DNA of 64,000 bases, from positions 72,427 to 136,426 of the forward strand of contig JACNGE010000014.1 in assembly GCA_014384285.1 (NCBI GenBank), written 5' to 3'. Position numbers and translations under genes: made by a program. This DNA comes from Actinomycetota bacterium. Lineage in GTDB: Bacteria; Actinomycetota; Acidimicrobiia; Actinomarinales; Actinomarinaceae. Within the stretch, counting starts at the first letter, position 1; each line of letters starts with the position of its first letter. The notes beneath the pieces are model-generated. The model worked only from the letters and a program-made list of their open reading frames with translations. It had not been told where the DNA came from and searched no databases. Shown piece by piece: positions 1 to 40,249 of this stretch.

Positions 1-651
1 TGTTTGGTCATTGATTACTGAAACGTCGAATATGTTATCTATTTCGAGATACGCGGAATATAATGGCTCAGTTCCAAAAGCTAGAAAACTTGCAGGAATT
101 GTAGGCAACAGTGACTGCAGAAAAAGATATGCTATCTTGCCTGGGTCACTGAGTTGTTTAATTTCTTTAGTTAATCCGATTACTGGAATCCACATATTTA
201 TAGAAACCAAAAGCATCACACCATGTATTAAAAAATGAAAGAGTGTATTTGTGACCATTAGATTAATCACTGTTGTCCAATGCATTCCAACCATAACAAT
301 ATTAAATAGGAAAAAAGCTACGACTGGCTTAGTTGTTATTTGCAATAAAGAGATTAAAGGTTTTATAGAAATTATTTTTTTTTGTGCACTATTTAAGCCA
401 TTAAGAAGGAGAGGCGGTGCAACTAGTGCTAAGACTAAATGTTCAGCTGAATGAACTGAGAATAGATACTTTTCACCAATATCGTGGATAGGCCAGTCAG
501 TGAATAGCCAGAGAATAAACAATCCCGAGTACCAAGATTTTCTTTTATTTTTTTTAATAGCACTATTGTCTGTAGAGTATTCGAAGAAAACTATGAGTGA
601 AATAATGAGTGCCCAGACATCATAATGTGGGTGCCAAACTAAATTATCCAT
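1..651 (-). CDS. ctaG: Cytochrome c oxidase assembly factor CtaG-like (Caa3_CtaG family) polytopic membrane protein. The 3' end is truncated by the window edge.
   Basis: I translated the minus strand myself; this ORF is absent from the ORF track because it runs off the window. It starts ATG at 651..649 and overlaps the upstream ctaF stop by 1 nt (TAATG). The product is hydrophobic and multi-TM (MDNLVWHPHYDVWALIISLIVFF...). Its position directly after ctaC-D-E-F mirrors the Bacillus ctaCDEFG operon. Confidence 0.5.
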   Translation of the reverse strand, partial: MDNLVWHPHYDVWALIISLIVFFEYSTDNSAIKKNKRKSWYSGLFILWLFTDWPIHDIGEKYLFSVHSAEHLVLALVAPPLLLNGLNSAQKKIISIKPLISLLQITTKPVVAFFLFNIVMVGMHWTTVINLMVTNTLFHFLIHGVMLLVSINMWIPVIGLTKEIKQLSDPGKIAYLFLQSLLPTIPASFLAFGTEPLYSAYLEIDNIFDVSVINDQT

Positions 652-986
652 TAAATAAAGTTTGCAGCTGCTCTTTCAAACATGACAATTGCAAATAAGA
701 TGAGTGCTAGAATCATCCCACCTGTAAAGAATTTATTTATTAATGAATTTTCAAATCTTAGATGCATAAACCAGCCAACAACGATGACAAATTTTCCAAC
801 AGCTAAAATTATCAGCAATGGATCAGTAAACACTCCTACGATATCTTCGGTGTAATAAAGAGCAACTTCAATCGCAGTGAGGACACCTAAAACAAGAGCT
901 ATTTGAACATACTGAGTAGGTTTTGGATGGGGTTTGTGATCAACCGACATCAGATTAAGTAAACCACAGTAAATAGAACAATCCAA
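651..986 (-). CDS. ctaF: Cytochrome c oxidase subunit IV, Bacillus-type small subunit (COX4_pro-like)
   Basis: 111 aa with 3 TM segments, following ctaE in the same orientation. Size and position match Bacillus CtaF (about 110 aa). Confidence 0.55.
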   Translation of the reverse strand: MDCSIYCGLLNLMSVDHKPHPKPTQYVQIALVLGVLTAIEVALYYTEDIVGVFTDPLLIILAVGKFVIVVGWFMHLRFENSLINKFFTGGMILALILFAIVMFERAAANFI

Positions 987-1549
987 ACAATATCAACAAA
1001 GTGCCAATACAAAGCTACAAACTCAAGGTTCATTCCACCATCTAAAGAGAGACCTTTTTGTCTTTGTCCAATACTCCAGAGAGCTAGCAATAGAACTACA
1101 CCAATAAATACATGTAATCCGTGGAAACCAGTCAAAACATAAAAAGTTGAACTAAAAATATTTGAGGAGAGCTCAAAACCCTTATGATAAAATTCTGTAA
1201 ATTCATAAATTTGCCCGGCAAGAAATACTGCTCCTAACATAGCTGTAGCTAGTAGCCAAACTCTTGTTTTTTCCTGATCATTACTTTCTAAAGCATTGTG
1301 AGCGAGGACCATTGTTAAAGAACTCATCAACAAAACAAAAGAACTAACAGATGTGAACGGAATATCATAAACATCTGTAAGTTTAATTCCTGGAAAATCT
1401 CTACCTTTGAAGATCATGAATGTTGTAATTAATGTTCCAAAGAAAAGTATCTCTGTAGATAAAAATATCCACATTCCTAGTTTTCTAGTTTCAACTCCTG
1501 TAGGTTCATGAGGATATGAATGAGAGTCACTCATTTTCACCATCTCCAA
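950..1549 (-). CDS. ctaE: Cytochrome c oxidase subunit III
   Basis: 199 aa heme-copper oxidase subunit III. It carries the conserved C-terminal WHFVDIVWIVLF motif and 5 TM helices. Confidence 0.9.
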   Translation of the reverse strand: MEMVKMSDSHSYPHEPTGVETRKLGMWIFLSTEILFFGTLITTFMIFKGRDFPGIKLTDVYDIPFTSVSSFVLLMSSLTMVLAHNALESNDQEKTRVWLLATAMLGAVFLAGQIYEFTEFYHKGFELSSNIFSSTFYVLTGFHGLHVFIGVVLLLALWSIGQRQKGLSLDGGMNLEFVALYWHFVDIVWIVLFTVVYLI

Positions 1550-3488
1550 TGAATTCTTCCTCTAAAGGCTCAGTTCCCCATCCAAAGCTGCCAATGAGAA
1601 TTAGAAGTGTGCCAACAATTGCAAGAGGAAGCATTTTGTAAATTACAGCATATCCTAGAAACGGAAGACCCGAAGCTAAGATAATTGGAAAATAAGATGG
1701 ATTTGGAAGAACTATATCTTCTTTTGGATTCAAGCCTTCTTCTTCGAGTTCTAGCATTAATGCATCAGCAGAATCTTTTCTAACAGGTCTACCATCTTCA
1801 TCTTCATCGTATTTCATATGCCAAAAGTCATCGAGTGATTTCACTTCTGGAGCTTTGGAAAAGTTCCAGACAGGAGTGGGTGAGGGAATACTCCATTCAA
1901 TAGTCCGTGCATCCCATGGGTCAAATCCAGCATCTGGACCTTTTCTTCTGGAATAAATCCAGTTAGCCATGAAGACCAGTATTGAGAGAGCAATTATGAA
2001 TGCACCGATAGAGACAATAAGATTCCAAAAACCCAAATTTGTTTCTTCAGCATACACCCAAGTTCTCCTTACCTGTCCCTGCAGACCAAGCCAATGCATC
2101 GGACCAAAGGTAAGATTAAAACCAATTATCATTAGCCAAAAATGTATTTTTCCAAGTGCTTCGTTATACATTTTTCCCCATACTTTAGGAAACCAGTAAT
2201 AAAGACCAGAAAAAATACCAAACATAGCGCCACCGAAGAGAACATAATGGAAGTGTGCAACAACATAGTATGTATCAGTTTGCTGGGTATCTGCTGGAAC
2301 AATTGAGTGAGTCACTCCACTTAGACCACCAATAACAAACATACCAATAAACCCTAGGGAAAAGAGCATAGGGGTATTTAATTTTAATTTTCCTCCCCAA
2401 ATGGTTCCTAGCCAGTTAAATATTTTGACACCAGTAGGAACAGCAATGACCATTGTCGACAAACCAAAGCCTGCCTGTGCTACAGGACTTATAGCTGATG
2501 CAAACATATGGTGGGCCCAAACACCAAAACCAATAAAAGCTATACCAAATCCTGCAAAGACTATTGCTGGATAACCAAAGAGCGGCTTTCTAGAAAAAGT
2601 TGGTAAAACTTCAGAGACAATCCCAAAAGCAGGAAGTATTAGTATATATACTTCGGGGTGTCCAAATAACCAAAATAGATGTTGCCACAAAATCGGATCT
2701 CCGCCGCCCTCTGTTAAAAAGAATGTTGTACCAAACTGTCTATCAAATGTGACATAAAAGAGCGCTATTGCAATTATTGGAAGGGAAAACGCTAATAAAA
2801 AGGAAACAGCAAATGTCATCCATGTAAATACTGGCATCCTCATTAATCGCATACCTTTTGTTCTCATATTTAATATCGTCGTAATGAAGTTAAATGCTGA
2901 TACTAATGAAGCAATTCCAAGAATCTGAAGACCTATTGCCCAGTAATCCATAGCTGTTCCTGGAGAGTATTTAAACCCAGCATTAGGTTGATATCCAAAC
3001 CAACCACCATTAGGAGCAGAGCCTAATCTACTGACTTCTTCAGCTAGATAACCACCTTGGGGTGCTCCTGCTGTACCAAACAAAAAAGTTGAGTACAGAA
3101 AGACTCCACCAAAAATGAAAATCCAGAAAGAAAGCGCGTTTAGTCTTGGGAAAGCTACATCTCTTGCACCAATTTGCAGAGGTAGAAGATAGTTAAAGAA
3201 GGCGGCACTAATCGGCATAATCGCCAAAAATATCATTGTTGTTCCATGCATTGTAAACATGGCGTTATATTCAGCAGCACTTAAAAAGTTATTGTCTGGT
3301 GAAGCAAGTTGAATTCTTAGCAGTAGAGCTTCTAATCCACCTACAAGTAAAAAGAAGAATGCTGCGTATCCGTACATTATACCTATTCGTTTGTGGTCAA
3401 CGGTTGTTATCCAGCTCCAGATGCCTGTTTCGGAAGAAGGCCTTTTAAAAATATTTGATTGTTTTCTTGGTTCAATAATTTTTGTCAT
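1527..3488 (-). CDS. ctaD: Cytochrome c oxidase subunit I (heme-copper oxidase catalytic subunit) with a C-terminal 2-TM extension
   Basis: 653 aa with classic subunit I motifs (WFFGHPEVYILILPAFG, HHMF, His ligands) and 12 or more TM helices. It overlaps ctaC and ctaE by a few nt. Confidence 0.95.
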   Translation of the reverse strand: MTKIIEPRKQSNIFKRPSSETGIWSWITTVDHKRIGIMYGYAAFFFLLVGGLEALLLRIQLASPDNNFLSAAEYNAMFTMHGTTMIFLAIMPISAAFFNYLLPLQIGARDVAFPRLNALSFWIFIFGGVFLYSTFLFGTAGAPQGGYLAEEVSRLGSAPNGGWFGYQPNAGFKYSPGTAMDYWAIGLQILGIASLVSAFNFITTILNMRTKGMRLMRMPVFTWMTFAVSFLLAFSLPIIAIALFYVTFDRQFGTTFFLTEGGGDPILWQHLFWLFGHPEVYILILPAFGIVSEVLPTFSRKPLFGYPAIVFAGFGIAFIGFGVWAHHMFASAISPVAQAGFGLSTMVIAVPTGVKIFNWLGTIWGGKLKLNTPMLFSLGFIGMFVIGGLSGVTHSIVPADTQQTDTYYVVAHFHYVLFGGAMFGIFSGLYYWFPKVWGKMYNEALGKIHFWLMIIGFNLTFGPMHWLGLQGQVRRTWVYAEETNLGFWNLIVSIGAFIIALSILVFMANWIYSRRKGPDAGFDPWDARTIEWSIPSPTPVWNFSKAPEVKSLDDFWHMKYDEDEDGRPVRKDSADALMLELEEEGLNPKEDIVLPNPSYFPIILASGLPFLGYAVIYKMLPLAIVGTLLILIGSFGWGTEPLEEEFIGDGENE

Positions 3489-4501
3489 TTAAGTGTTCCC
3501 AAATAAGCAATTAGCGCATTAATTTCTTTCTCAGTTAATTCTAGATTAGGCATGAAGGTACCTGGTTTTATTTCAGCAGGATTTGCAAGCCACTTAGTAA
3601 GATTCTCTGGATTATTTTTTAGCGCAGCTCCAGCAAAAACACTTCTGTTTGCAAAGTGTGTAAGATTAGGAGCAATTCGATCACCTTGTACATCCCATAC
3701 ACCATCAATCACATGACACTGGGTACAACCTGCGTTTAAATACACAACTTGACCTTCGGCAGCTAATGAAGATTCTGGCAATTCTTTTTGAGCGTACGAT
3801 TGTTCATTTGCAACCCATGAGGCAAAATCTTCCTCTGTCATTGAAATAACCCTTCCTCGCATTTTTGAATGGCTCAGTCCACAATATTCTCCACATTGAG
3901 CCCAAAATTCTTCAGGAGAATCTGCTTGTAGATTTAGATATGTTGTTTGACCAGGTACAAGATATCTTTTTCCATTTAATTTAGGAACCCAATAATTGTG
4001 CAAAACATCATTTGACCACATTTCAAGCCTTACAGGCCTGTCTTCTGGGATAACTAAAACATTTGCAGTAGTAATTCCAAAGTCTGGATACTTATATTCA
4101 AACCACCATTGATGTCCAATTACTTCAATTTTTAAAGCATCTTCTGGCTCCCTAGCAAGGTCAAAAATTGTTCTAACAGTAGGCACTGCAATTACTGCCA
4201 AAATTAATACTGGAATAATTGTCCAAAGAATTTCTAGAAAATTGTTTCCGTGAATTTGTTTTGGTTCAGGACTGCTTTCTCTTTCTTTAAAGTAAAAAAC
4301 TGAAAAAAGAAGCGCCCCTTGTACTATCGCAAAAACACCAACTGCAATCCAAAAAGTAAGCCAAAAGAGTTCATCTATACTTCTTGCATAGGGCCCAGCT
4401 GGACTTAAGGAGTCAAGCGGAGCATCTTCTATACACGAAGACAAGAAAAGAAAGCTCAGCAAAAAAATTTTTTTATCTTTAAATAATTTCATCTCAAACA
4501 A
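3485..4501 (-). CDS. ctaC: Cytochrome c oxidase subunit II, caa3-type, with a fused C-terminal cytochrome c domain
   Basis: 338 aa with a signal peptide/lipobox-like N-terminus and 2 TM. It has the CuA-region motifs (HNYWVPKL; CGEYCGLSHSKM) and a C-terminal CTQCH heme c binding site. Confidence 0.9.
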   Translation of the reverse strand: MFEMKLFKDKKIFLLSFLFLSSCIEDAPLDSLSPAGPYARSIDELFWLTFWIAVGVFAIVQGALLFSVFYFKERESSPEPKQIHGNNFLEILWTIIPVLILAVIAVPTVRTIFDLAREPEDALKIEVIGHQWWFEYKYPDFGITTANVLVIPEDRPVRLEMWSNDVLHNYWVPKLNGKRYLVPGQTTYLNLQADSPEEFWAQCGEYCGLSHSKMRGRVISMTEEDFASWVANEQSYAQKELPESSLAAEGQVVYLNAGCTQCHVIDGVWDVQGDRIAPNLTHFANRSVFAGAALKNNPENLTKWLANPAEIKPGTFMPNLELTEKEINALIAYLGTLK

Positions 4502-4556
4502 TCCTTTAGGATAGCGTTCAAACTATATATAGTGTAATCATAAGTAGTATGAGTTA

Positions 4557-5444
4557 ATGTTATCAAATAAAATTTCTTTGGTAAAAAAATTTGTAAAACT
4601 CTCAAAACTTAGAGTTGTAGAACTTTTACTGGTCACGACAGTACCTGGTATGATTGTGTCCCTTTACTCAATGCCTCCTCTAACTCTTGTACTATCCACA
4701 CTAGCTGGGGGAACCTTATTGGCTGTTAGTGCAAACGTAATGAATCAGGTGTTTGAAATTGAAAGAGACAAACTAATGCAAAGAACCTCTGACAGACCAT
4801 TAGTAACTGGAGAGCTAACTAGAGCTACTGGAATAGTTTTTTCTGTACTGACTGGAATAATTGGATTTATTGTCTTATATTTACTAACAACTCCAACGGC
4901 AGCTTACATAGGACTTATTGCAAATCAGTTTTACATATTTATTTACACATTAATTCTTAAGCCCAGAACAAATCAAAATATTGTCATTGGCGGTGCAGCA
5001 GGAGCAGCACCAGTTCTAATTGGATGGACGGCAACCGGGAGCACTTTAGATATAGGTGCCTGGTTATTATTTCTATTAGTTTTTATGTGGACTCCAGCAC
5101 ATTTTTGGGCGCTATCAATTGAAAATAAAACAGATTATGAGCAGGCCGATTTTCCAATGCTTCCAACTCAGGAAACTTATGAAAGGTCAACAATATATAT
5201 TGCTATATACTCTTGTGCAACAGTGTTGATTTCAATTGCAGCAGCACCAGTTCTTCAACTCGGAATTATCTATTTGTTAATTGCAGTATTTCTTGGGACG
5301 AATTTAATGTTTAAATCCTATAACCTTTATAAGAAAAGAATCCAACCTATTAAATATTTTGTCTTTTCAAATACATATCTAGCTGTTATATTTCTAGGAA
5401 TAGTTGCAGATATAATGTGGACTTTAAGGGGAGTTGCCGTATGA
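4557..5444 (+). CDS. ctaB: Protoheme IX farnesyltransferase (heme O synthase), UbiA family
   Basis: 295 aa polytopic UbiA-fold protein, divergent from the cta oxidase operon. It carries the typical CyoE/CtaB signatures. Confidence 0.9.
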   Translation: MLSNKISLVKKFVKLSKLRVVELLLVTTVPGMIVSLYSMPPLTLVLSTLAGGTLLAVSANVMNQVFEIERDKLMQRTSDRPLVTGELTRATGIVFSVLTGIIGFIVLYLLTTPTAAYIGLIANQFYIFIYTLILKPRTNQNIVIGGAAGAAPVLIGWTATGSTLDIGAWLLFLLVFMWTPAHFWALSIENKTDYEQADFPMLPTQETYERSTIYIAIYSCATVLISIAAAPVLQLGIIYLLIAVFLGTNLMFKSYNLYKKRIQPIKYFVFSNTYLAVIFLGIVADIMWTLRGVAV

Positions 5445-6271
5445 ATGAATTATTTTTTTCGATAACTTATCCACCCATCCCAATAACAGAAATAGGACCA
5501 GTTGCATTTTCATTACATGGAGTATTTGCAGCTTTAGGTTTTTATTTTGGATCAACTTATGCAATTAAGTTATGTGTAAAAGATGGAGAAGATGATGAAC
5601 TTTTTTCAGATGCCTTTACTTGGGCAATTTTTGGGGCAATCATTGGGGCAAGATTTTTTACAATCCCGGCTCATATTGGCGATCCCGGGTATGGATTAGA
5701 TGATGTATTTTCAGTTGCTGGAAGTTACTCAATAATGGGAGGGATGTCCGGCGGAATAATTGCAGCATATTTTAGAATTGTATTGATAGGCAAAGCAAAC
5801 TTTCAAACCTATAGCGACTATGCAGCTCCAGGATTAATTATGGGTATAGCAATTGGAAGAATTGGTGATTTAGCAATCGTTGAACATCTAGGTAGAGCTA
5901 CGGAGTTTGTTCTTGGATATGAAATTAAACCAGGATATGATGTAGCACCTCAACACAATGCACTTGAGTGTATTGCACCAGAGATTACTTGTGGGACTTA
6001 TCATCATGTCGCTATGTATGACCTTATTCTTGCAACCCTCTTCTTTTTCGTATTTAAATACTTACAAAATAATCTAAATTATGGAAGTGGTTCCTGGATA
6101 GGCTTATGGGCTATTTGGTATGGAATTCAAAGAATGATTTTGGACACATTGAGATTTGGAATGGGAGACGCGACTATAGGTATTTTTACATGGAATCAAA
6201 TTGGTGGAGCAACACTTGCTAGCATCGGTTTACTAGTCTTCCTTAGATTTAAAAATATTAAAACAAGCTGA
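5441..6271 (+). CDS. lgt: Prolipoprotein diacylglyceryl transferase
   Basis: Matches Lgt signature blocks (IGPVA.S.HG, GGMSGG, IAPG..G.AIGRIGD). The ORF track starts it at GTG 5417; ATG 5441 gives an ATGA overlap with the ctaB stop and is the more likely start. Confidence 0.8.
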   Translation: MNELFFSITYPPIPITEIGPVAFSLHGVFAALGFYFGSTYAIKLCVKDGEDDELFSDAFTWAIFGAIIGARFFTIPAHIGDPGYGLDDVFSVAGSYSIMGGMSGGIIAAYFRIVLIGKANFQTYSDYAAPGLIMGIAIGRIGDLAIVEHLGRATEFVLGYEIKPGYDVAPQHNALECIAPEITCGTYHHVAMYDLILATLFFFVFKYLQNNLNYGSGSWIGLWAIWYGIQRMILDTLRFGMGDATIGIFTWNQIGGATLASIGLLVFLRFKNIKTS

Positions 6272-7181
6272 AGATAAATAAAGAATATGCGCCAAGCATT
6301 GAAAAACCTATAAGCGGACTTCTTTTAATCCTACTCCTTGAGATGATTATTACTACTAAAGATACAAAATACATCAGGAACATTTGAACTAATACGTCTA
6401 ACTCAATATTCCCTGGTTGGATAACAATAGATGCACCTCCAACTAAACCTATATTGAATAAATTTGAGCCAAAAATATTACCAAATATTAAGTCTGGTTT
6501 TTTTAACCTTGCAGCTGCAATTGTTCCAGCTATTTCTGGAAGACTTGTTCCAAGAGCAATCACAGTTACTCCAATAATTAACGATGAGATTCCAAATAAT
6601 TCAGCAAGATCTGTTGCATTATTCACAACTAAAGAGCTACCAAATATTGTTGCACCCAATGACAGTACAGCTTTTGGCCAGACATTAGTAATAGTCTCTT
6701 CTAAATATTCCTCATCTTCAATAGCTTCTTCGTTTACCAATCTATATGTAATAGCTGTAACAAGTATGAGTAATGTAACTCCTAAGATAAATGGAAATTC
6801 CTTAATTAAAACATAGCTCGAGACAAAGACTGTCGTTACAACCATCATCCATAGTGGGGAAGTCGGATTTAATTTTATTTTTTTATCATACGTAGCATCA
6901 ATAAATAAATATAACACTGCAACCACAAGCAGTGAGTTTGCAATATTTGAACCAATTATGTTCCCAATTCCTAAAGATAAATCCCCATTAAGTGCAGCAC
7001 CTGTGCTTGCAAACAACTCAGGAGCAGAAGTTCCAAATCCAATAAAAGTAGCTCCAATTATTGATGCAGGAATTTTAAGTTTTAGTGCAATCTGTACTGC
7101 AGACTTCACCATAAGATCTGCACCCTTAACTAAAAGTATAAATCCAGCTGCAAGGCCCAAGAGAATAATTAAAATGTCCAT
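6258..7181 (-). CDS. Ca2+:cation antiporter (CaCA family, YrbG-like Na+/Ca2+ exchanger)
   Basis: 307 aa polytopic protein with two alpha-repeat motifs, GTSAPELFAS and GTSLPEIAGT. Confidence 0.8.
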   Translation of the reverse strand: MDILIILLGLAAGFILLVKGADLMVKSAVQIALKLKIPASIIGATFIGFGTSAPELFASTGAALNGDLSLGIGNIIGSNIANSLLVVAVLYLFIDATYDKKIKLNPTSPLWMMVVTTVFVSSYVLIKEFPFILGVTLLILVTAITYRLVNEEAIEDEEYLEETITNVWPKAVLSLGATIFGSSLVVNNATDLAELFGISSLIIGVTVIALGTSLPEIAGTIAAARLKKPDLIFGNIFGSNLFNIGLVGGASIVIQPGNIELDVLVQMFLMYFVSLVVIIISRSRIKRSPLIGFSMLGAYSLFIFSLF

Positions 7182-7187
7182 TTAATT

Positions 7188-8006
7188 TTAATTTTTTGAA
7201 TCTCTCCAGGCTATCCACTCTTTGACATCTGAAAGGTCATAACCTGGACCATTTACTGCAAGAGTGACTTCTGTTGCGCCAGCCTCGATAAGTTCATCTG
7301 CTAAATCGATTCTTTTGATATCGATCCCAATAGATCTTTTAATTTCTCTAGGATCTCTTCCGATTTCTTTACACCAATTATCTAAAACGTTATTTTTATG
7401 AGCTACAGTTTCGATACCAGACCTTTCTTCAGTTTTTGTAGCAAAACCATGCCAAATGTCTGCATATTGAGCAGTAATCCTTAAGGTAACCTTTTCACCA
7501 CCGCCACCGATTAAAATTGGAATCTTTCTTATTGGCTGAGGATTGAGTTCCTTCATTCTCTTTACAATTCTTTCAAGAGATTTTTCAAGTGCATGCAATC
7601 TTGAAATTGCAGTACCAAATTCATAACCATATTCATCATAATCTTGCTCAAACCAACCAGAACCAATTCCCAGAATTGCTCTGCCGTTAGAAATGTGATC
7701 CACTGTTCTTGCCATATCTGCTAAAAGTTCAGGATTTCTGTAAGAGTTACAAGTAACAAGAGGACCAATGTCTACTCGATTGGTTACCTCTCCCCAGCTG
7801 GAAAGCATTGTCCAACATTCAAAGTGTTTACCTTCTCTTCTTTCCCCTTCATCCCATTGAGTTCCATCCTCTTTATAAAGTGGATAAAAATGATCCCAGT
7901 TATAGATAGCATCTGCCCCAATTTTTTCAGCTTCAATTGCAGCTTGTCTAATTTGGTCGTACTCAGCATGCTGAGGTTGTAAAAAAACTGCTATTCTAGG
8001 TTTCAT
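7188..8006 (-). CDS. Luciferase-like monooxygenase (LLM) class flavin/F420-dependent oxidoreductase
   Basis: 272 aa with the TIM-barrel LLM family N-terminus (PRIAVFL...GADAIYNWDHF). I cannot assign the cofactor from sequence alone. Confidence 0.55.
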   Translation of the reverse strand: MKPRIAVFLQPQHAEYDQIRQAAIEAEKIGADAIYNWDHFYPLYKEDGTQWDEGERREGKHFECWTMLSSWGEVTNRVDIGPLVTCNSYRNPELLADMARTVDHISNGRAILGIGSGWFEQDYDEYGYEFGTAISRLHALEKSLERIVKRMKELNPQPIRKIPILIGGGGEKVTLRITAQYADIWHGFATKTEERSGIETVAHKNNVLDNWCKEIGRDPREIKRSIGIDIKRIDLADELIEAGATEVTLAVNGPGYDLSDVKEWIAWRDSKN

Positions 8007-8026
8007 TTTTAACTCCTGTTCCTATG

Positions 8027-10564
8027 TTAATTGTTTAGGGTTTTGTCATCTAACGAATTATTGATATGTTTTGCTAATTCTATATTAGCCTCAAGCTTCT
8101 CTAATTTTTGAGCCATTATTTTTTCTGCTGATGGCAAAGGATTTTCTAAAATAAAAGACTTGATATCGTTTCCTAATTCCTGATCATATATTGAGTCAAG
8201 TCCAGACAGAATTCTTGATGCTGTCCACTCAGGCATGACAGCTAATAAATCTGCATAATTATTTTTTATTTCTTTCCATGACTCTCTTCCATTTACTTTG
8301 TTGGCAATCATTGATGCTAAAATATAGGGACAATCTGCACCCCTAATTGTTCCATCTAACATTGAGCTAATAATAACTTTTCCAGCATTGGGATCTCTGA
8401 CCGCTCCAAGAACTGCTCTGTACCTACCTTCTATTTGGGGAGATCCTGCATTCAAGAATTTTTCAAGGAACTTCTCTATTTTTATTTCTGGGTCTAAAGC
8501 CGAAATATACAAAGCTGTATTGTACAAACTACCATCTTGGATTGTCTCAATGGTGCCATCTTTAAACCTATCACTATAAAAACTGATAAATTCATCATCA
8601 TTTTCAATTGCAGCAATCAACTTGTTTACAATTGCACGAAGTTCTTTAACCTCCATGGAGTCTGAATCTTTAGTGTCACGACCAAGGTCCTCTTTTATTT
8701 CTCGTACAAGGTTATTGAAATAATTTACAAAAGAATCATATTTTTCAATTGGTAACATTTTTGACATTGATGATATTATTCCAGAAATATAAGACCAGAT
8801 ATTAGGATCACTCTCAGATTGATATAGCGGTAAAAATTCTAAAAATTCATTTATTGAGAACTTGCCAATTGTTACAGACTTCCAGGTATCCTCTAAAAGT
8901 CTATATTTCTCTAGAGAGTTTAGAGCATAAAAGTTTTCTTTAATTTTTAAAAATATCTCTGGTTCATACACAACATGATAGAAAGCCCACCCACCGTTAT
9001 TGATAAAGGGAACCTCTCCAGAAGAAGTTAGTTCCAAGGTTTTTGAATTTTGAACAACTGTATCAACTTTTCCAGTGTCTAAAAAGCGGATATTGACAGG
9101 AATTTCCCAGAGGGAGTCGTCAGTAGTACCATCAATAAGAAATTTTGATTGAGTAAGAGAGAAACCTTCTCCAACCTTTTTTACCTCAATAATCGGAAAA
9201 CCGGGTTGCTTAATCCATGTTGGAAGCATTTTATTTAAAGGTATTTTACTTTCCTCAGTAAGAGAATTCCATAAATCAGAGGAATGTGTATTTTTGAATT
9301 TGTATCTATTTAAGTACTTCTGAACACCTATTCGGAACACTTCTTCTCCAACAAACATTTCAAACATTTTCAATACTGTTGACCCTTTTTCATAAGTTAA
9401 AACATCAAACATTTCTTCTGCCTGTTCAGGAGTTTCTACTTCAAACTCAACTGGTCGGGAGTTCTTGAGTGAGTCAACACCAAACCCAGCACTTCGCGAT
9501 AGGTTCATTTCGCTCCACTGTTCGAATTCAGGATAAGTTCCATTTGCTGCAATTGCTTCCATCAGACTTGCAAAAGCTTCATTTAACCATATGCCATCCC
9601 ACCACTTCATTGTTACAAGGTCTCCAAACCACATATGTGCAAGTTCATGTGCAATTACACTTACAGATCTAGAAAGCTCTTGTCTAGTGGCTTTAGCCTC
9701 ATCTATAAGTAGAAGACTTTCACGAAAAGTAACAGCTCCGACATTCTCCATTGCCCCCATTGCAAAATCAGGTATAGCAATAAGATCAAGTTTTGAGCCT
9801 GGATATGGAATTTGATAATAATTTTCAAAAAATTCTAAAATTTTCATTCCAGCTTTTCCTGCAAAGTTAGTTTGGTGTGAGAACCCGGGTCTATGGATAA
9901 TTCTTATTTGTGTTGTGCCAACACTTCCGATCTCAGTTACCTCAAGTTCCCCAATTACGAAAGCTACTAAATAAGTTGACATTATCATTGAATCAACAAA
10001 TTTGGTTTCAACTTTACCATTGGATAGTTCATTCTCTTCAAGAACTTTTTCATTAGAAATTCTGAGGTATTTTTTATCTGAAATTAAAGTCATTGAGAAT
10101 ACTGCTTTATATTCTGGTTCATCCCAACATGGAAAAGCATTTCTGGCAGAAGTTGGTTCAAACTGAGTTGTAGCAAGCCATTTTTCATTATCATTTAAAT
10201 CTAAAAATTGACTCTTATAAAATCCTTTCAAATCATTAGTAATTAATGAATTGAATTTTAATTTCAAGGAGTAGTTTCCTAATGTAAGTTTACTTTCTGT
10301 GCTAAACGATATCCTCTCTAATTCTTTTAAGTATTTAAAATCTAAATCAATTTGAGACCCATCTGAATCAAGTAGGTAAGCCTCTGTTATTTCAATGTCA
10401 ATTCCATTAACTTCGAACGAATCAGTATCTTTTATAATTTCTAAATCTACAGTTTGCGAACCTGTGTATTTAAAATTAGGTAAATCAACGTCCAGTTTTA
10501 TTTCGTAACGTAAAGGCCTAGCAAATTTTGGCAGTATTGCCTTATTCATCTTCTCTCCAATCAA
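8027..10564 (-). CDS. pepN: Aminopeptidase N (M1 family zinc metallopeptidase)
   Basis: 845 aa with the GAMEN exopeptidase motif and HELAHMWFGD...E zinc site. The true start may be the internal MNKAIL Met. Its 5' end overlaps the gnd 3' end. Confidence 0.9.
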   Translation of the reverse strand: MIGEKMNKAILPKFARPLRYEIKLDVDLPNFKYTGSQTVDLEIIKDTDSFEVNGIDIEITEAYLLDSDGSQIDLDFKYLKELERISFSTESKLTLGNYSLKLKFNSLITNDLKGFYKSQFLDLNDNEKWLATTQFEPTSARNAFPCWDEPEYKAVFSMTLISDKKYLRISNEKVLEENELSNGKVETKFVDSMIMSTYLVAFVIGELEVTEIGSVGTTQIRIIHRPGFSHQTNFAGKAGMKILEFFENYYQIPYPGSKLDLIAIPDFAMGAMENVGAVTFRESLLLIDEAKATRQELSRSVSVIAHELAHMWFGDLVTMKWWDGIWLNEAFASLMEAIAANGTYPEFEQWSEMNLSRSAGFGVDSLKNSRPVEFEVETPEQAEEMFDVLTYEKGSTVLKMFEMFVGEEVFRIGVQKYLNRYKFKNTHSSDLWNSLTEESKIPLNKMLPTWIKQPGFPIIEVKKVGEGFSLTQSKFLIDGTTDDSLWEIPVNIRFLDTGKVDTVVQNSKTLELTSSGEVPFINNGGWAFYHVVYEPEIFLKIKENFYALNSLEKYRLLEDTWKSVTIGKFSINEFLEFLPLYQSESDPNIWSYISGIISSMSKMLPIEKYDSFVNYFNNLVREIKEDLGRDTKDSDSMEVKELRAIVNKLIAAIENDDEFISFYSDRFKDGTIETIQDGSLYNTALYISALDPEIKIEKFLEKFLNAGSPQIEGRYRAVLGAVRDPNAGKVIISSMLDGTIRGADCPYILASMIANKVNGRESWKEIKNNYADLLAVMPEWTASRILSGLDSIYDQELGNDIKSFILENPLPSAEKIMAQKLEKLEANIELAKHINNSLDDKTLNN

Positions 10565-11933
10565 TGTGTATGTATTCGTCTGAATTCAATAGTTGTACAG
10601 TGTGGCTCCCAAAAAAGTCTCTTTGCGCTTGGATTAAATTTGAAGGATTATCATCTGCACTTAAATTAAGGTACCAACTCAAACTTGTAGAAAAAACTGG
10701 TAATGAAATATTTTTTAATATTGAGGAACTTACAATTTCTTTTATATTTTTAAGATTTTTTTTCAGCAAATCATGTAACTGACTCGAATGTAATAACTTA
10801 TCGGATGAATTATTTATTTCTATAAATTCATCAAGCATCTCAGACCTAATAATGCATCCACCGCTCCAGTTATTAAAAATATCTTCAAAATTAAAGGAAA
10901 ATTTGTTAACTTCGTTGTACCTCTCAATTATCGTAAGACCTTGAATCATAGATGCAACTCTTCCAAAATAGAGAGATTTAGCAAGGGCGGTTTGAAGACT
11001 CAATTTTTCTGAATCATCCAAATTATCTTTATTATCTTGAATTCGTGATGTAGAACTTGTTTTCCAAAAATAATCTGTATTACTTTGAACCCGTGCGTCA
11101 TATGCTGAATATATTGATGGAGCTGATACTCCAAGTTCAAATGAAGTTTCTATCGTTAGTCTTCCAGTCCCCTTGTTATTTGCCAAAGATTTTATTAAAT
11201 CAACAGTAAAGTATTCTCCGTCTTTTTTTCTTAGTATTTCAGAGGTGATTTCAATTAAGTATGAAGATTGATTTATTTTTTTCAGAGAACTAAAAAAATC
11301 TGCTATTTGAAGGTTGTTAAATCCAGTTCTTTTTAATAAATGATAACTTTCAGCAATCAGCTGCATTTCTGCATATTCAATACCGTTATGAACCATTTTT
11401 ATAAAGTGACCAGAACCAGAGCCTTCATAAAAACCTACACAGTCGTGTGGTGCTTTTGCTGAAATAGAAGATAATAATTCAATCAAATCTCCATCTAGAT
11501 TGTTATTTGAGCCCACCATTATAGCTGGGCCATATCTTGCCCCCTCTTCTCCACCGGAAACACCCATGCCAATGAATTTTATATTCTTTTTAGACAAGTT
11601 TTCCCCATGATGAATACTTTCTTGATAAAAAGAGTTACCGCCATCAATAACTACATCATTTTCATCTAACAAATTCGAGAGCTGATTTATTAATTTGCTA
11701 GTAGGTTCTCCTGATGGAATCATTAATAGAAGATTTCTTGGACGATCCATATTCTCAACAAGCTCTTCAAGGGTTGTGTATCCTGAGAAATTTCCATCGA
11801 ATTCTTTTTGTACAGCTTCTAATTTTTTGGAAGAATTATTGAAAGCTTTTATATTTGTACCCTTTTCTGCAATATTTAGGCCAATGTTTTTCCCCATTAC
11901 ACCAAGTCCAATTAATCCAATTTCACCCAACAT
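10542..11933 (-). CDS. gnd: 6-phosphogluconate dehydrogenase, decarboxylating
   Basis: 463 aa with an N-terminal GLIGLGVMG Rossmann motif and the 6PGDH C-terminal domain. Confidence 0.9.
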   Translation of the reverse strand: MLGEIGLIGLGVMGKNIGLNIAEKGTNIKAFNNSSKKLEAVQKEFDGNFSGYTTLEELVENMDRPRNLLLMIPSGEPTSKLINQLSNLLDENDVVIDGGNSFYQESIHHGENLSKKNIKFIGMGVSGGEEGARYGPAIMVGSNNNLDGDLIELLSSISAKAPHDCVGFYEGSGSGHFIKMVHNGIEYAEMQLIAESYHLLKRTGFNNLQIADFFSSLKKINQSSYLIEITSEILRKKDGEYFTVDLIKSLANNKGTGRLTIETSFELGVSAPSIYSAYDARVQSNTDYFWKTSSTSRIQDNKDNLDDSEKLSLQTALAKSLYFGRVASMIQGLTIIERYNEVNKFSFNFEDIFNNWSGGCIIRSEMLDEFIEINNSSDKLLHSSQLHDLLKKNLKNIKEIVSSSILKNISLPVFSTSLSWYLNLSADDNPSNLIQAQRDFFGSHTVQLLNSDEYIHIDWREDE

Positions 11934-13255
11934 TATTTTGGATCTTTCATTATTTTTAAATCTTTTAACTTACTTACTAATTTGCTTCTCATTTTTATTT
12001 CAATTAATAATAAATCAGAACTATTTTTTACTTCTAAAATTTCACCAAATCTATTTACGTGTTCCAAATTTTTTGGCTCAACCAAGAATGAGTCTTTTAT
12101 AGTTTCTCCATATATTTCTTTTGAAATTGTTTCGACAAGCTCATCAATACCAGTTTGTTTTAACGATGAAATAAATAAAGCTTGAGGATATCTTTCTGCT
12201 AGGTCGTTTAAAGAAGCTCTGTCGATTTTATCAACTTTATTAAATACCATAATTTCATTAGCACTAACTTCAATTTGTTTTAGGATCTCTCTTACCGTAG
12301 CAATATGCATCTCAGGAATAGCTGTTGCTGCATCAACTACATGTATTAATAGATCTGCACTCGTAGCAACTAATAAAGTTGATTTAAAAGACTCAATGAG
12401 TGTTGTTGGTAAATTTTGAATAAAGCCAACTGTGTCTGATAAGATCAAAGGCTCTTGGACATCTTTTACGGGAAGCTCTCTTTGTAAAGAGTCAACTGTC
12501 GCAAAAAGTTCATCTGCAGCATATGCATCTGAATTAGTCAAAGATTTCAACAAGGTAGATTTTCCAGCATTCGTATACCCAACAATTGATACCAAAGGAG
12601 TGTTCTTCTTCTCTCTGGAACTCGCCTGAAGTAGTCGCTGCCTCTCAATTTTCTTAAGCTCTTTTCGTAATTTATTTATGCGGTTATCAATTAACCTACT
12701 GTCAGTTTCTAACTTAGCTTCACCAGGTCCTCGTGTTCCAATTCCACCACCTTGTTGGTTTAAAGTTTTCCCCAAACCTGCAAGTCTAGGTTTAAGATAT
12801 ACAGACATGGCTAACTCAACTTGTAGATTGGCCTCTTTCGACTGTGCATGTAATGCGAAAATATCAAGAATTAAACCAGTTCGGTCAACTACATCGCACT
12901 GAAAAATTTCTCTAAGTTCTTTTTGCTGATTTGGATTGAGTTCACAATCAAAAATAACTACATCAATATCATTCGCCTTTGATAAAACCTCAAGGTCATT
13001 GATAGAACCTTTTCCAATGAAAGTTTTTGGATCAATTCGGTCAACTCTTTTTGTTTGAACAATTGTTGGATTTGAACCTGCTGTTTTTACAAGACTTGTT
13101 AGCTCTTTTAAAGATTCTTCACGATCAGCTCTTGTTTGATTTTTTAGAATAATTCCAACAAGCAAAGCTTTTTGAACCGTTACAAATATATCTTTGTCAG
13201 ATACTGTTAGCAACCGTCTATCAGTTTGATTTGGATTATTATTTCTTTGATTCAA
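11933..13255 (-). CDS. hflX: GTPase HflX
   Basis: 440 aa with an HflX N-domain followed by a G-domain (GYTNAGKSTL G1, DTVGF G3, NKVD G4). Confidence 0.9.
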   Translation of the reverse strand: MNQRNNNPNQTDRRLLTVSDKDIFVTVQKALLVGIILKNQTRADREESLKELTSLVKTAGSNPTIVQTKRVDRIDPKTFIGKGSINDLEVLSKANDIDVVIFDCELNPNQQKELREIFQCDVVDRTGLILDIFALHAQSKEANLQVELAMSVYLKPRLAGLGKTLNQQGGGIGTRGPGEAKLETDSRLIDNRINKLRKELKKIERQRLLQASSREKKNTPLVSIVGYTNAGKSTLLKSLTNSDAYAADELFATVDSLQRELPVKDVQEPLILSDTVGFIQNLPTTLIESFKSTLLVATSADLLIHVVDAATAIPEMHIATVREILKQIEVSANEIMVFNKVDKIDRASLNDLAERYPQALFISSLKQTGIDELVETISKEIYGETIKDSFLVEPKNLEHVNRFGEILEVKNSSDLLLIEIKMRSKLVSKLKDLKIMKDPK

Positions 13256-13308
13256 TTATTTAAGAGTATCGAAAATTTTGTAATATAAAAGGCATATTTT
13301 CTGATTGT

Positions 13309-13403
13309 TGGCGGAGGTGGACGGGAATCGAACCCGCCAAAGACTTTTACACCTTTCACCAGTTTTGAAGACCGGGGAGCCCACCAGGCGCTCATTCACC
13401 TCC
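13309..13403 (-). tRNA. 95-nt long-variable-arm tRNA with anticodon UCA. It would decode UGA, so it is a tRNA-Sec (selC) candidate or a Ser-type opal suppressor.
   Basis: Reverse complement: GGAGGTGA-AT-GAGC-GCCTGGTGG-GCTC-C-CCGGT-CTTCAAA-ACTGG-(21-nt variable arm)-GCGGG-TTCGATT-CCCGT-CCACCTCC-G-CCA. The anticodon loop CUUCAAA gives U33, anticodon UCA, A37. The discriminator is G73 and CCA is encoded. There are 8 nt between the T-stem and the discriminator, the 8/5 layout typical of tRNA-Sec, and the loop is identical to the E. coli selC anticodon loop. Confidence 0.7.
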
Positions 13404-13455
13404 ATTATTAAGACTAATTGTATAAAAAATTTTAGATTGAATACAATTATGTAAT

Positions 13456-14052
13456 ATGGAAAACTTTTCATCATTATTTTTAAGACTTAAAAAAGAAAGA
13501 GGATTGTCTAACAAGCAAATAGCCTCTTTCACTGGTGCAGAATTAAAAGAAGTAAAAAAATGGGACGCTGGTACAAGTTTTCCAACAGACAAAAAAGTAA
13601 TTATTGCACTCGAGGGTTTATTAGGAAAAGAGGTAATGGATACACTTGAAGACTTATCTAGTTATAACCAAGTAACAACTAACTCAAACGATGTAGAGGA
13701 TTCACTATTTAAAATTGATAAAGATAAAAAGGTAGATTTAAAGTCAGGCATCTTTAATCGATTTAAGTCAGAAAAACAGGAGACTAAAGAGATTCCTCAA
13801 CCCGAACTATTCAGGTATGAAAATATCGAAGATTCACAAAATCTTGAAGAACTCGAAGCTAACACACAAAAAGAAATCTTTGAAACTGCCTTGGATGAAA
13901 GACCCTACATTGAAGATTCAAAACAATTAGGTTTTTATCTGACAAGGAATGTCAAAACCTTTTTGGGGTTAATTTTTATTACTGTGTTAATCACTCGCGG
14001 ATTTAGGTTATTCCTGGACTCTATCAAAATGATAATAGATAACTTATTGTGA
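13456..14052 (+). CDS. HTH (XRE-like) domain protein with an acidic linker and a C-terminal transmembrane anchor
   Basis: 198 aa. The N-terminus has a helix-turn-helix (LRLKKERGLSNKQIASFTG...), followed by an acidic low-complexity linker and a single C-terminal TM (FLGLIFITVLITRGF). Its stop overlaps the ctaA start. Confidence 0.4.
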   Translation: MENFSSLFLRLKKERGLSNKQIASFTGAELKEVKKWDAGTSFPTDKKVIIALEGLLGKEVMDTLEDLSSYNQVTTNSNDVEDSLFKIDKDKKVDLKSGIFNRFKSEKQETKEIPQPELFRYENIEDSQNLEELEANTQKEIFETALDERPYIEDSKQLGFYLTRNVKTFLGLIFITVLITRGFRLFLDSIKMIIDNLL

Positions 14053-14951
14053 CACTATATAAACTGAGTGGAGCAGGATTAGGACTCTCAGTCTTGTCGA
14101 TAATAGCTGGAGCAATAGTTAGAGCTACTGGTTCCGGAGATGGGTGTGGATCTTCTTGGCCAAGTTGTAATGGGCGAATCATACCTTCTCTTAATTCAGC
14201 TGCAGAGCAAATTGAGTTTTCCCATCGTGCCATCAGTGGATTGTTGCTAATCATCACACTTGCTATTTTTCTAAAATCCTTTAGTCCGTCAGTAAATGGG
14301 GTTCAAAAAAAAGTTATTAATTACCTCACTTTTTTTGTAATATTTGAAGCCCTGATAGGAGCTGTAATAGTGTTATATGAGTGGGTTGGATTAAATAGCT
14401 CCATACCTAGGGTTATTGCTGTACCCCTTCATCTGGTAAATACTTTTGGATTGCTTGCTATGTATACTGTAATTTTTAAACTATCAAAAAATTCTGAGAA
14501 ACGGATTATAAACTTAATTGATAGAAATTTTAAAATAGTCACATTTTTATTTATTCTAGCTGGAGCGACAGGGTCAATAGCTGCACTTGCAGATGTATTG
14601 TTCCCCAGCGAGTCATTTGTTAGTGGTCTAGTAGATGACTTTGATACTACTTCAGCTCTACTAACAAGACTAAGGGTTCTACATCCGCTAGCTTCAACAG
14701 TTTTATCTATTTTACTTTTTCTTGAATCAAACAGGCTTCAAAATTTTTTCAATATAAAAACTTTTGAAATAAAATCCTTAGTTATTTTGGGCGTAGCATT
14801 AGGTACATTGAATGTACTTATGAATATAAATATTTTTTTAAGTGTAATACATCTATTGATAGCAGATCTACTTTGGATTACATATATATACAAAAGTTTG
14901 GAAAAAAGTTATCAATTTGAAATAAGAACAAATAATTCCACTATCGATTAG
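14049..14951 (+). CDS. ctaA: Heme A synthase (COX15/CtaA family)
   Basis: 300 aa polytopic protein with the N-terminal Cys pair in loop 1 (GDGCGSSWPSC) and conserved His residues in TM helices. Confidence 0.75.
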   Translation: MTLYKLSGAGLGLSVLSIIAGAIVRATGSGDGCGSSWPSCNGRIIPSLNSAAEQIEFSHRAISGLLLIITLAIFLKSFSPSVNGVQKKVINYLTFFVIFEALIGAVIVLYEWVGLNSSIPRVIAVPLHLVNTFGLLAMYTVIFKLSKNSEKRIINLIDRNFKIVTFLFILAGATGSIAALADVLFPSESFVSGLVDDFDTTSALLTRLRVLHPLASTVLSILLFLESNRLQNFFNIKTFEIKSLVILGVALGTLNVLMNINIFLSVIHLLIADLLWITYIYKSLEKSYQFEIRTNNSTID

Positions 14952-21209: not shown

Positions 21210-22328
21210 ATGAACTTAGAATTACTTAATCGTGGATTTATTCCTGAAGAAATTTGCTTAAACCTTCCTGACACATTCTCAGACGTCGAGCAGCTAGCAT
21301 TAGAGCTGCCTAAAGTCTTAGCTAATGAACAAATCGAAAGCAGAGTTTTACGACTTGAGGTTGAAAAAAATGTCGATGATTTAACAGTACCTCAACTAGA
21401 GAGGGCAATGCTGGTCTATTCGTACATCGGCCATGCTTTTATGTGGGGAAAAAAGAATGATTTAAATGTAATACCACCTCAGATTGCTAAAACATGGCAT
21501 AAAATTTCAACAAAATTAGAGAGACCACCCATTCTTTCTTATGCATCCTATGCACTGAACAATTGGAAAATGCTTGACTCTTCCCAACCGTTCGATCTAG
21601 AAAATATAGTTATAGTACAGAATTTCTTAGGTGGTGTTGATGAAGATTGGTTCATCATGATTCATGTAGCGATAGAATACGAGGCGAAAGAAATATTATC
21701 AGCACTAAAAAAATATTTTTTTGACTCTGGTGTGGCTACAGATCTCGAGGACGCCTTGCAAAGTATAAAAAAAATTAACCATACTATGAATCGAATGCCT
21801 GAAAAGTGTGACCCTTTCATTTACTACAACCGCGTAAGACCATATATCTTCGGATGGAAGAACAACCCAACAACACCTGAGGGAGTTATTTACGAAGGAG
21901 TTGATGAATATGATGGGAAGCCGCAGATATTTAGAGGGGAAACAGGAGCTCAAAGTTCAATTGTCCCAATGTTAGATGCTTTATTAGGGGTGACTCACTC
22001 TGATGATCCATTAAAAGAATATCTTGATGAAATGAGGCTATACATGCCCAAAGAACATAGAGATTTATTAAATGAATTAGATTCTTGGTCACAAACTGAG
22101 AGAAGTGCAACACTTGATTCAATAAGCAACGAAGATAAAAATCTAATAGACGAAATTATTAAAGAGGTTCATATATTTAGAAGTAAGCATTTGGAGTATG
22201 CGAGAATTTACATTTATGAACAGTCACTAACTAATGATTCAAATTCAAATATTGTTGGAACTGGTGGCACACCGTTCATGAAATATCTTGATAAACACCT
22301 TCAGGAGACAGTCCCTACGAATGATTAA
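21210..22328 (+). CDS. Indoleamine 2,3-dioxygenase (IDO) family heme dioxygenase homologue
   Basis: 372 aa. It carries the IDO signature blocks FRGETGAQSSIVPMLDALLGV (compare human IDO1 GGSAGQSSVFQCFDVLLGI), SKHLEYARIYI (proximal His region) and GTGGTPFMKYL (compare GTGGTDLMNFL). Confidence 0.65.
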   Translation: MNLELLNRGFIPEEICLNLPDTFSDVEQLALELPKVLANEQIESRVLRLEVEKNVDDLTVPQLERAMLVYSYIGHAFMWGKKNDLNVIPPQIAKTWHKISTKLERPPILSYASYALNNWKMLDSSQPFDLENIVIVQNFLGGVDEDWFIMIHVAIEYEAKEILSALKKYFFDSGVATDLEDALQSIKKINHTMNRMPEKCDPFIYYNRVRPYIFGWKNNPTTPEGVIYEGVDEYDGKPQIFRGETGAQSSIVPMLDALLGVTHSDDPLKEYLDEMRLYMPKEHRDLLNELDSWSQTERSATLDSISNEDKNLIDEIIKEVHIFRSKHLEYARIYIYEQSLTNDSNSNIVGTGGTPFMKYLDKHLQETVPTND

Positions 22329-38889: not shown

Positions 38890-38956
38890 TATCTTGCATG
38901 AAGAGAGGGTAACCTCAGCAACCTAGAAAGCAAACAAAGGTGCTAGAGATGCGGTT
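38890..38956 (+). promoter_or_regulatory. SAM-riboswitch-like aptamer (SAM-I/SAM-IV superfamily core blocks) in the metK leader
   Basis: GCATGAAGAGAGGGTAACCTCAGCAACC...AAGGTGCTAGAGATGCGG is homologous, block by block, to a second element upstream of metY. It has AAGAGAGG after P1, a short hairpin followed by CAGCAACC, an AAGGTGC block and a GAGATG P1 3' strand. A U6 tract and a CCUUCC anti-SD-like run follow, upstream of the AAGGAG SD. Confidence 0.6.
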
Positions 38957-39013
38957 TTTTAAAACAAAAAATATGCTACCTTCCTTCATAAACATTTTAA
39001 GTAAGGAGAGCTT

Positions 39014-40102: not shown

Positions 40103-40133
40103 AAACAAATAAAAAGACTGATATAATTTAAAT

Positions 40134-40200
40134 ATACATTAAGAGAAGGTTAAGACCTCAGCAACCTGGATGACTCTCCAAGGTGCTTGAAGATGTGGCA
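40134..40200 (+). promoter_or_regulatory. SAM-riboswitch-like aptamer in the metY-metX leader
   Basis: ACATTAAGAGAAGGTTAAGACCTCAGCAACCTGGATGACTCTCCAAGGTGCTTGAAGATGTGG is a paralogue of the metK leader element. A TATAAT -10 box lies at 40122..40127 just upstream, and a CCCTCTCC anti-SD lies downstream near the GGAGA SD. Confidence 0.6.
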
Positions 40201-40249
40201 GAAATGCAACTAACTAGTCAAAACCCTCTCCAACTTAAAGGAGAAACAT

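Follow-up and report, generated by a model that had tools for sequence, protein, structure and literature searches.

Background

The use of selenocysteine (Sec) in Candidatus Actinomarina has already been described. According to the preprint 'Actinomarina, resolved' (bioRxiv, April 2026; 10.64898/2026.04.03.716425), a selC gene with the anticodon UCA, selA and selD are present in 84 of 84 complete genomes. In that study selA passes the strict KofamScan threshold in all 84 genomes and is located approximately 0.18-0.19 genome lengths from selC, selB is represented in all genomes by a sub-threshold match to K03833 (268 vs 306), and about five selenoproteins are predicted per genome, including a Sec-type SelD family whose members begin with 'MRLT' (10.64898/2026.04.03.716425). 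The preprint further describes selC as positionally variable and as located inside a hypervariable region in 32 of the 84 genomes, and it places selA at 91-92% in all genomes (10.64898/2026.04.03.716425). The selC gene of Actinomarina is thus already known as an ordinary bacterial tRNA-Sec gene, and the trait to which it belongs is described in this preprint (10.64898/2026.04.03.716425).

Sec-type SelD proteins also have an older record in marine metagenomes. In the selenoproteome of the Global Ocean Sampling (GOS) data, analyzed in 2008, Sec-SelD was the second most abundant selenoprotein family; the study never mentions Actinobacteria and makes no taxonomic attribution to them (PMC2398784).

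Here we describe a tRNA gene with the anticodon UCA which is located directly upstream of hflX in a 64-kb stretch of actinobacterial DNA (the whole stretch analyzed is referred to as the window), together with its conservation among related species and a selD gene found on overlapping contigs. What this adds to the preprint is an independent confirmation and two corrections, one concerning the position of selC and the other the apparent universality of the Sec-type selD.

Results

The tRNA gene and its structure

ARAGORN called a tRNA-SeC(tca) on the minus strand of the window with the exact span 13309-13403. The Rfam tRNA-Sec model RF01852, whose gathering score is 47, matched window positions 13313-13403 with 75.3 bits (E = 1.2e-13) over the full model (positions 1-91), and it beat the generic tRNA model in the clan competition, in which the best match is kept (clan CL00001). 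The gene and its parts are as follows:

13309..13403, minus strand: tRNA-Sec gene (selC), 95 nt including the encoded 3' CCA (ARAGORN and Rfam RF01852)
13396..13403, minus strand: acceptor stem, 5' strand, GGAGGUGA; partner 13313-13320, 8 positions, the eighth being an A·C mismatch
13377..13393, minus strand: D-arm, loop UGGU (4 nt) closed by a 6-bp stem in which one G, tRNA position 15, is bulged (Rfam covariance-model alignment)
13359..13375, minus strand: anticodon arm, 5-bp stem with C·U at the sixth position; loop CUUCAAA
13366..13368, minus strand: anticodon UCA, which reads UGA (sequence and ARAGORN)
13338..13358, minus strand: long variable arm of about 21 nt, containing a 6-bp stem
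13321..13337, minus strand: T-arm, 5-bp stem opening with G·U; loop UUCGAUU
13313-13320, minus strand: acceptor stem, 3' strand, CCACCUCC; the whole part, with discriminator and CCA, spans 13309..13320
13312, minus strand: discriminator G73 (sequence)
13309-13311, minus strand: encoded CCA (sequence)

The acceptor and T helices together comprise 13 positions (8 + 5) and not 12 (7 + 5), with standard pairs at 12 of the 13, and 8 nt separate the T-stem from the discriminator G73. In the covariance-model alignment the strands of the D-stem are GAGC(G)CC and GGGCUC, which form six pairs and leave one G bulged. The anticodon loop CUUCAAA consists of 7 nt with U33 and a purine, A37, at position 37. 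The long variable arm and G73, identified in the sequence and the covariance-model alignment, are identity features for SerRS. Membership of the tRNA-Sec family follows from the classifier calls taken together with the 8 + 5 helix, the D-arm with 6-bp stem and 4-nt loop, the long variable arm, G73 and the loop CUUCAAA.

An earlier note, made by inspection of the window, had proposed a tRNA at this position, and both programs confirm that it is real. Its description of U33, the anticodon UCA, A37, the loop CUUCAAA, a 21-nt variable region, the 8-nt spacing, G73, the CCA end and an A·C eighth acceptor pair was accurate. The note had, however, drawn a Ser-like D-arm with a 4-bp stem and a 9-nt loop, in place of which the covariance-model alignment gives the 6-bp stem with one bulge and the 4-nt loop. 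Its suggestion that the gene could equally be a serine-accepting UGA suppressor was based on that D-arm and is not supported.

A scan for consensus promoters and terminators found none for the tRNA. By eye, the candidate arrangement TTGTAT-18 nt-TACAAT can be read upstream of the gene; it ends 13 nt before the mature 5' end and lies below the scan threshold.

Genomic neighbourhood

The tRNA gene lies between two protein-coding genes, and a third gene follows on the right-hand side:

11933..13255, minus strand: hflX (TIGR03156, 408.6 bits), the next gene downstream of the tRNA, in the same orientation
13456..14052, plus strand: 198-aa gene, divergently oriented, with a weak RstR-type HTH match at residues 4-47 (E 1.9e-4)
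14049-14951, after the 198-aa gene: COX15/CtaA gene (profile annotation)

Public assemblies contain the exact HflX protein of the window in 887 blocks, the contigs reaching lengths of up to 595 kb. A Pfam search with the 198-aa protein gave no match; the gene is context only and stands outside the Sec system. The window as a whole has about 35% G+C and a high density of actinobacterial-type housekeeping genes. Besides hflX these include cytochrome oxidase genes, ctaB, an F420-dependent LLM oxidoreductase gene, pepN, gnd, a gene for a SigA/SigB-type sigma factor, topA, tmk, holB, metK, metY and metX as well as the run tilS-hpt-ftsH-folE-folP-folB-folK-panC-coaX-lysS-clpC.

In E. coli, selC is an integration site. 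This role and the HTH motif in the neighbouring gene raised the question of whether the tRNA marks the border of a genomic island, an idea we rejected because the genes on both flanks are conserved housekeeping genes in all 31 species and there is no integrase.

Several further observations concern the window itself. Gene orientation and GC skew both flip at the tRNA (window 1-14000 vs 14000-64000), with mostly minus-strand genes and negative skew on the left and mostly plus-strand genes and positive skew on the right, and the cumulative GC skew has its minimum at about 12-14 kb; this flip could be an effect of strand composition or a replication-related switch. Two SAM-I/IV riboswitch aptamers (gathering score 41.1) are located on the plus strand, one at 38891-38981 (59.0 bits) upstream of metK (39014-40102) and the other at 40131-40223 (75.4 bits) upstream of an O-acetylhomoserine sulfhydrylase gene (40250-41530), after which metX is located. 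A bacterial homologue of indoleamine 2,3-dioxygenase is encoded on the plus strand at 21210-22328 (Pfam IDO, 255 bits); Actinomarina is described as a tryptophan auxotroph (10.64898/2026.04.03.716425).

Conservation of the tRNA across Actinomarina

Relatives of the window were found by a scan for HflX and comprise 31 species representatives named Candidatus Actinomarina, Actinomarinales or OCS155 or carrying a broader Acidimicrobiaceae or Actinomycetota name. Their HflX proteins are 69-90% identical to that of the window, which is therefore assigned to Candidatus Actinomarina, a marine actinobacterium of very high abundance and small genome size. ARAGORN placed a tRNA-SeC directly upstream of hflX in all 31 of them, and the neighbourhood of tRNA and hflX is conserved across the genus (synteny in 31/31 species); upstream of hflX in the next outgroups (loci L033 and L036), ARAGORN found no tRNA-SeC.

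The 32 tRNA sequences represent 14 distinct variants with a mean column identity of 96%, and 83 of 93 positions are invariant across the 31 species. With the cloverleaf imposed on the alignment, 96% of the cells pair; a shift of the 3' partners by one to three columns lowers this proportion to 42-53%. The observed covariation score was reached by no shuffle. Compensatory changes are found in four pairs, two of them in the anticodon stem (29-45, C-G/A-U; 31-43, G·U/A-U/G-C), one in the variable arm (53-60, seen as C-G, U·G and U-A) and one in the T-stem (69-81, which switches between G-C and A-U with one G·U intermediate). The acceptor stem has seven invariant Watson-Crick pairs, and pair 8-84 is unpaired in 14 of 14 distinct variants. 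Every position of the D-arm is invariant among the 14 variants, so that covariation speaks neither for nor against pairing in the D-stem. The A·C mismatch, the bulge in the D-stem and the C·U above the anticodon stem are all invariant as well, which indicates that they are fixed features and not signs of decay. As judged from this pattern of substitutions, the tRNA is under strong purifying selection across the genus.

An identical 95-nt sequence occurs at 11 independently assembled loci, and the loop CTTCAAA is present in 40 of 40 tRNA copies. The 1.02-Mb contig CALSSQ010000001.1 (L006) has an identical tRNA. The C at anticodon position 35, for which an assembly error had been considered, is therefore genuine. 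The 3' CCA is encoded only in the clade of the window: among the 40 copies, GCCA ends the 12 of this clade and GCTA the 28 of other Actinomarina species (compared over loci L008-L035 and L061), which implies that a CCA-adding enzyme is needed in the latter.

Position of selC in the genome

Positional data for selA, selC and selD are also given in the preprint. In its Supplementary Table 8, the 32 rows for which selC was reported within a hypervariable region mirror the other 52 rows (x -> 1-x) for selA, selC and selD alike. In the mirrored rows selA is located at 0.07-0.11, selC at 0.87-0.895 and selD at 0.905-0.92; the corresponding values in the other 52 rows are 0.87-0.93, 0.10-0.13 and 0.074-0.093. 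The mirrored rows also contradict the preprint's own statement on the position of selA. Together with the location of selC beside hflX in 31 of 31 species, this suggests that the reported variability, and with it the placement of selC in a hypervariable region, is an artefact of genome orientation. The gene is positionally fixed beside hflX and is not mobile.

A selD gene with an in-frame TGA

To the left, the window could be extended on overlapping contigs. Locus L085 corresponds to window positions 1-13488 at 99.9% identity, and locus L129, which is taken from a metagenome contig of 289 kb, overlaps L085 as well as window positions 1-4429 at 99.9%. In L129 a selD gene was found:

L129 18612-19643, minus strand: selD (TIGR00476, 324.5 bits, cut-off 125, for the part downstream of the TGA)

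This places selD about 14-15 kb beyond the left end of the window. Its distance to the tRNA, about 28 kb, agrees with the selC-selD spacing of about 0.025 genome lengths (0.022-0.026) in the preprint. It starts with AGGAGGTGAA-ATG and leads to GGT TCT GGT TGA GCT TGT AAA. The N-terminus thus reads MRLTQYSHGSG-U-ACK, with the in-frame TGA aligned to the catalytic Cys17 of E. coli SelD, and the beginning MRLTQYSHGSGU likewise shows the MRLT start of the family predicted in the preprint. The Shine-Dalgarno sequence and the start codon, 11 codons upstream of the TGA, are intact. Gene callers shorten the gene to a 319-aa ORF starting downstream of the TGA.

All 22 Actinomarina selD loci recovered (L129 and 21 further loci within L094-L156) have a TGA where the catalytic Cys is expected, and they share the motif G-S/A-G-U-A-C-K. 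For selD to yield a functional product, this catalytic-site UGA has to be decoded as Sec or Cys. The preprint infers a Sec-type selD in about half of the genomes, whereas the TGA was present at every locus compared here; as far as these loci represent the genus, the Sec-type selD appears to be universal in Actinomarina.

Two other genes on the overlapping contigs deserve mention. Downstream of ctaG, at L085 13635-14747 (some 150-1260 bp beyond the left end of the window), lies a gene whose product is called with different lengths in near-identical strains, namely 370 aa in L085 and L087, 340 aa in L088 and 199 aa in L086. The gene matches itself at an offset of 30 nt and may therefore encode a protein with a variable number of tandem repeats. 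The second gene, at L129 11987-12352 on the minus strand (the same gene as L085 21046-21411), is located about 7.6-7.9 kb to the left of the window, with the cytochrome oxidase cluster on one side and selD on the other. It encodes a DsrE-related protein of 121 aa that belongs to the SaoD/'ELSE' family (NF040913, 191.6 bits). DsrE-like proteins are a known selenoprotein family elsewhere; the copy found here is full length and without a TGA.

A candidate SECIS hairpin downstream of the selD UGA

In every clade, a hairpin can be folded 9-13 nt after the selD UGA. Its upper stem differs in sequence between clades and is complementary in all of them (UCAC/GUGA, CUCUCC/GGAGAG, CUCGC/GCGAG and UUUCU/AGAAA), and the amino acids encoded by the upper stem vary between clades too (SPSE, SQGE, APSE and SQKE). 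As the registers of the hairpin vary between clades, no single count of covarying pairs can be given. The predicted stability is modest, with z-scores of -2.1 to -2.5 in four clades, and in the window's own clade the hairpin is weak (-8.5 kcal/mol, z = -1.0) and has a 3-nt apical loop, unlike the E. coli fdhF model. On this basis, a SECIS element downstream of the selD UGA is plausible but not established.

Use of UGA and searches for further sel genes

Within the window, TGA ends 12 of 54 genes, and the tails that would be added by read-through are 1-25 codons long and of low complexity. UGA is thus a normal stop codon, and it is recoded only at specific sites. Scans of the window for ORFs split by TGA, both for long pieces and for short N- or C-terminal pieces, gave no convincing selenoprotein gene; each candidate was either antisense to a long gene or merely a trivial tail. 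Annotation of essentially all window genes with NCBIfam and Pfam revealed no selA, selB or selD and no known selenoprotein family.

The window and 162 loci were also searched by tblastn with approximate E. coli SelA, SelB and SelD probes, which served to locate candidates only, the identity of selD resting on the NCBIfam model. In the Actinomarina loci, this search found only SelD, and no selA turned up in the window or in any of the 162 loci. All SelB-like matches in these loci lie inside the gene for the GTPase BipA/TypA, and the stronger SelB matches (loci L067 and L069) belong to unrelated MAGs. In these two MAGs, which are not from Actinomarina, a SelB-like gene is located less than 10 kb from hflX (L067 20614-20955 and L069 20441-21016) and is 42-54% identical to the N-terminus of E. 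coli SelB; the neighbourhood of hflX and a sel gene in them may be coincidental or recurrent.

Discussion

Our analysis leads to the conclusion that the gene is, very probably, the selC of Candidatus Actinomarina, a true tRNA-Sec gene whose product decodes specific UGA codons. This agrees with the concordant calls of ARAGORN and Rfam, with the genus-wide conservation of the tRNA including compensatory changes and with the TGA at 22 of 22 loci of the nearby selD. Two expectations of the earlier note hold in this light: UGA has a sense reading in some genes, as seen from the in-frame TGA at the catalytic Cys position of selD, and it is not globally reassigned, as seen from the 12 window genes that it terminates with short potential tails. 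Of the sel genes that the note had asked to be searched for, selD was identified outside the window, on the overlapping contig (TIGR00476). The note had also called Sec unexpected for a streamlined genome; this was a fair expectation, but the trait had been reported already (10.64898/2026.04.03.716425).

From the established bacterial pathway, the tRNA would be charged with serine by SerRS, which would recognise the long variable arm and G73. SelA would then turn serine into Sec on the tRNA, using selenophosphate provided by SelD, and SelB-GTP, not EF-Tu, would bring the Sec-tRNA to UGA codons that precede a SECIS hairpin, UGA elsewhere serving as an ordinary stop codon. SelD would itself be a selenoprotein and a client of the pathway, so that the pathway would form a feedback loop, a situation known from other SelDs of the Sec type.

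Three other explanations have to be weighed. The tRNA could be a serine-inserting opal suppressor, i.e. a derivative of tRNA-Ser with G35 changed to C, which EF-Tu would deliver to UGA codons generally. In its favour, SerRS recognises G73 as well as the long variable arm, a Ser-like drawing of the D-arm (4-bp stem, 9-nt loop) is possible, and the eighth acceptor pair is mismatched. However, an acceptor/T helix of 13 positions is not the canonical 7/5 geometry compatible with EF-Tu, and the Sec-specific model wins the clan competition. Rudinger et al. (1996) reportedly described an EF-Tu antideterminant box in E. coli tRNA-Sec. The G·U and C-G pairs found where the acceptor and T helices meet, at the top of the T-stem, would correspond to this box and would argue against delivery by EF-Tu. 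A general suppressor is also difficult to reconcile with UGA as a normal stop in 12 of 54 genes and no long conserved read-through, and with a selD UGA exactly at the catalytic Cys/Sec site, where serine would, according to established SelD biochemistry, leave the enzyme inactive. We therefore give this explanation very little credence. Equally little weight can be given to a decaying relic, that is, a tRNA-Sec gene that fell out of use when the Sec trait was lost. Streamlining is extreme in this genome, the 64-kb window contains neither a sel nor a selenoprotein gene, and one could take the A·C mismatch and the bulge for signs of incipient decay; yet a relic would not be expected to keep 83 of 93 positions invariant over 31 species, with compensated stem substitutions and a fixed location beside hflX, nor would the TGA be expected in 22 of 22 selD loci, preceded by a start codon and a Shine-Dalgarno sequence that are both intact. 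In addition, a genome of 1.1 Mb would presumably not retain an unused gene throughout the genus.

The remaining explanation is a Sec-like tRNA with a different identity. Mukai et al. (2017) are said to have found Sec-shaped tRNAs with other identities in metagenomic surveys, and a selC*-type tRNA-Cys or an allo-tRNA would insert Cys or another residue at UGA; that the selB reported for the genus is divergent would fit such a change of identity. The discriminator G73 and the Ser/Sec-type variable arm argue against it, as do the 8/5 geometry, which differs from the 8/4 or 9/3 of allo-tRNAs, the presence of a Sec-type selD and the report of selA and selD in every genome (10.64898/2026.04.03.716425). 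An identity other than Sec is thus highly improbable, and the tRNA is best regarded as a true tRNA-Sec.

A more far-reaching view, which we offer as a speculation and consider rather unlikely, is that the oddities of this tRNA-Sec (the A·C mismatch, the bulged D-stem and the C·U), the sub-threshold SelB and a minimal, AU-rich SECIS with a 3-nt loop would together represent a co-evolved, slimmed-down Sec machinery which would be obligately autocatalytic through the selenoprotein SelD. If this were true, one of the most abundant bacteria of the ocean would be strictly dependent on selenium.

Independent of this speculation, a free-living organism with a genome of about 1.1 Mb, which is among the most abundant photoheterotrophs of the surface ocean, retains machinery for the 21st amino acid. 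One practical consequence concerns annotation, as the Sec codon causes gene callers to truncate the selD of Actinomarina and presumably a small number of other genes. Another concerns the Sec-type SelD signal that is abundant in marine metagenomes. One of the Sec-selD loci of the Actinomarina type (L143) has a GOS-type accession (AACY020565305.1), which indicates that part of the old GOS Sec-SelD signal probably came from Actinomarina; this signal thereby gains, in part, a taxonomic home.

Compared with E. coli tRNA-Sec, the prototype of RF01852, the tRNA of Actinomarina has in common the anticodon UCA, the loop CUUCAAA, the 8 + 5 helix, the G·U opening the T-stem, the 6-bp D-stem with a 4-nt loop, the long variable arm, G73 and the encoded CCA. 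It differs in the last acceptor pair, which is A·C in Actinomarina and C-G in E. coli, in the bulged G of the D-stem, in the C·U at the sixth position of the anticodon stem and in its AU-rich variable arm. No sel or fdh gene adjoins selC in Actinomarina. In allo-tRNAs and selC*-type tRNA-Cys the acceptor/T helix is likewise extended and the variable arm long, and some members have the anticodon UCA, but these families show 8/4 or 9/3 geometry or U73, whereas the tRNA described here combines 8/5 geometry with G73 and scores as tRNA-Sec. With respect to the client gene, the motif G-S/A-G-U-A-C-K of Actinomarina SelD corresponds to G-A-G-C-G-C-K in E. coli, and the closest parallel is found in Sec-type SelD proteins such as those of Haemophilus influenzae and Methanocaldococcus jannaschii, in which, as in Actinomarina, UGA encodes the equivalent of the catalytic Cys17 near the N-terminus.
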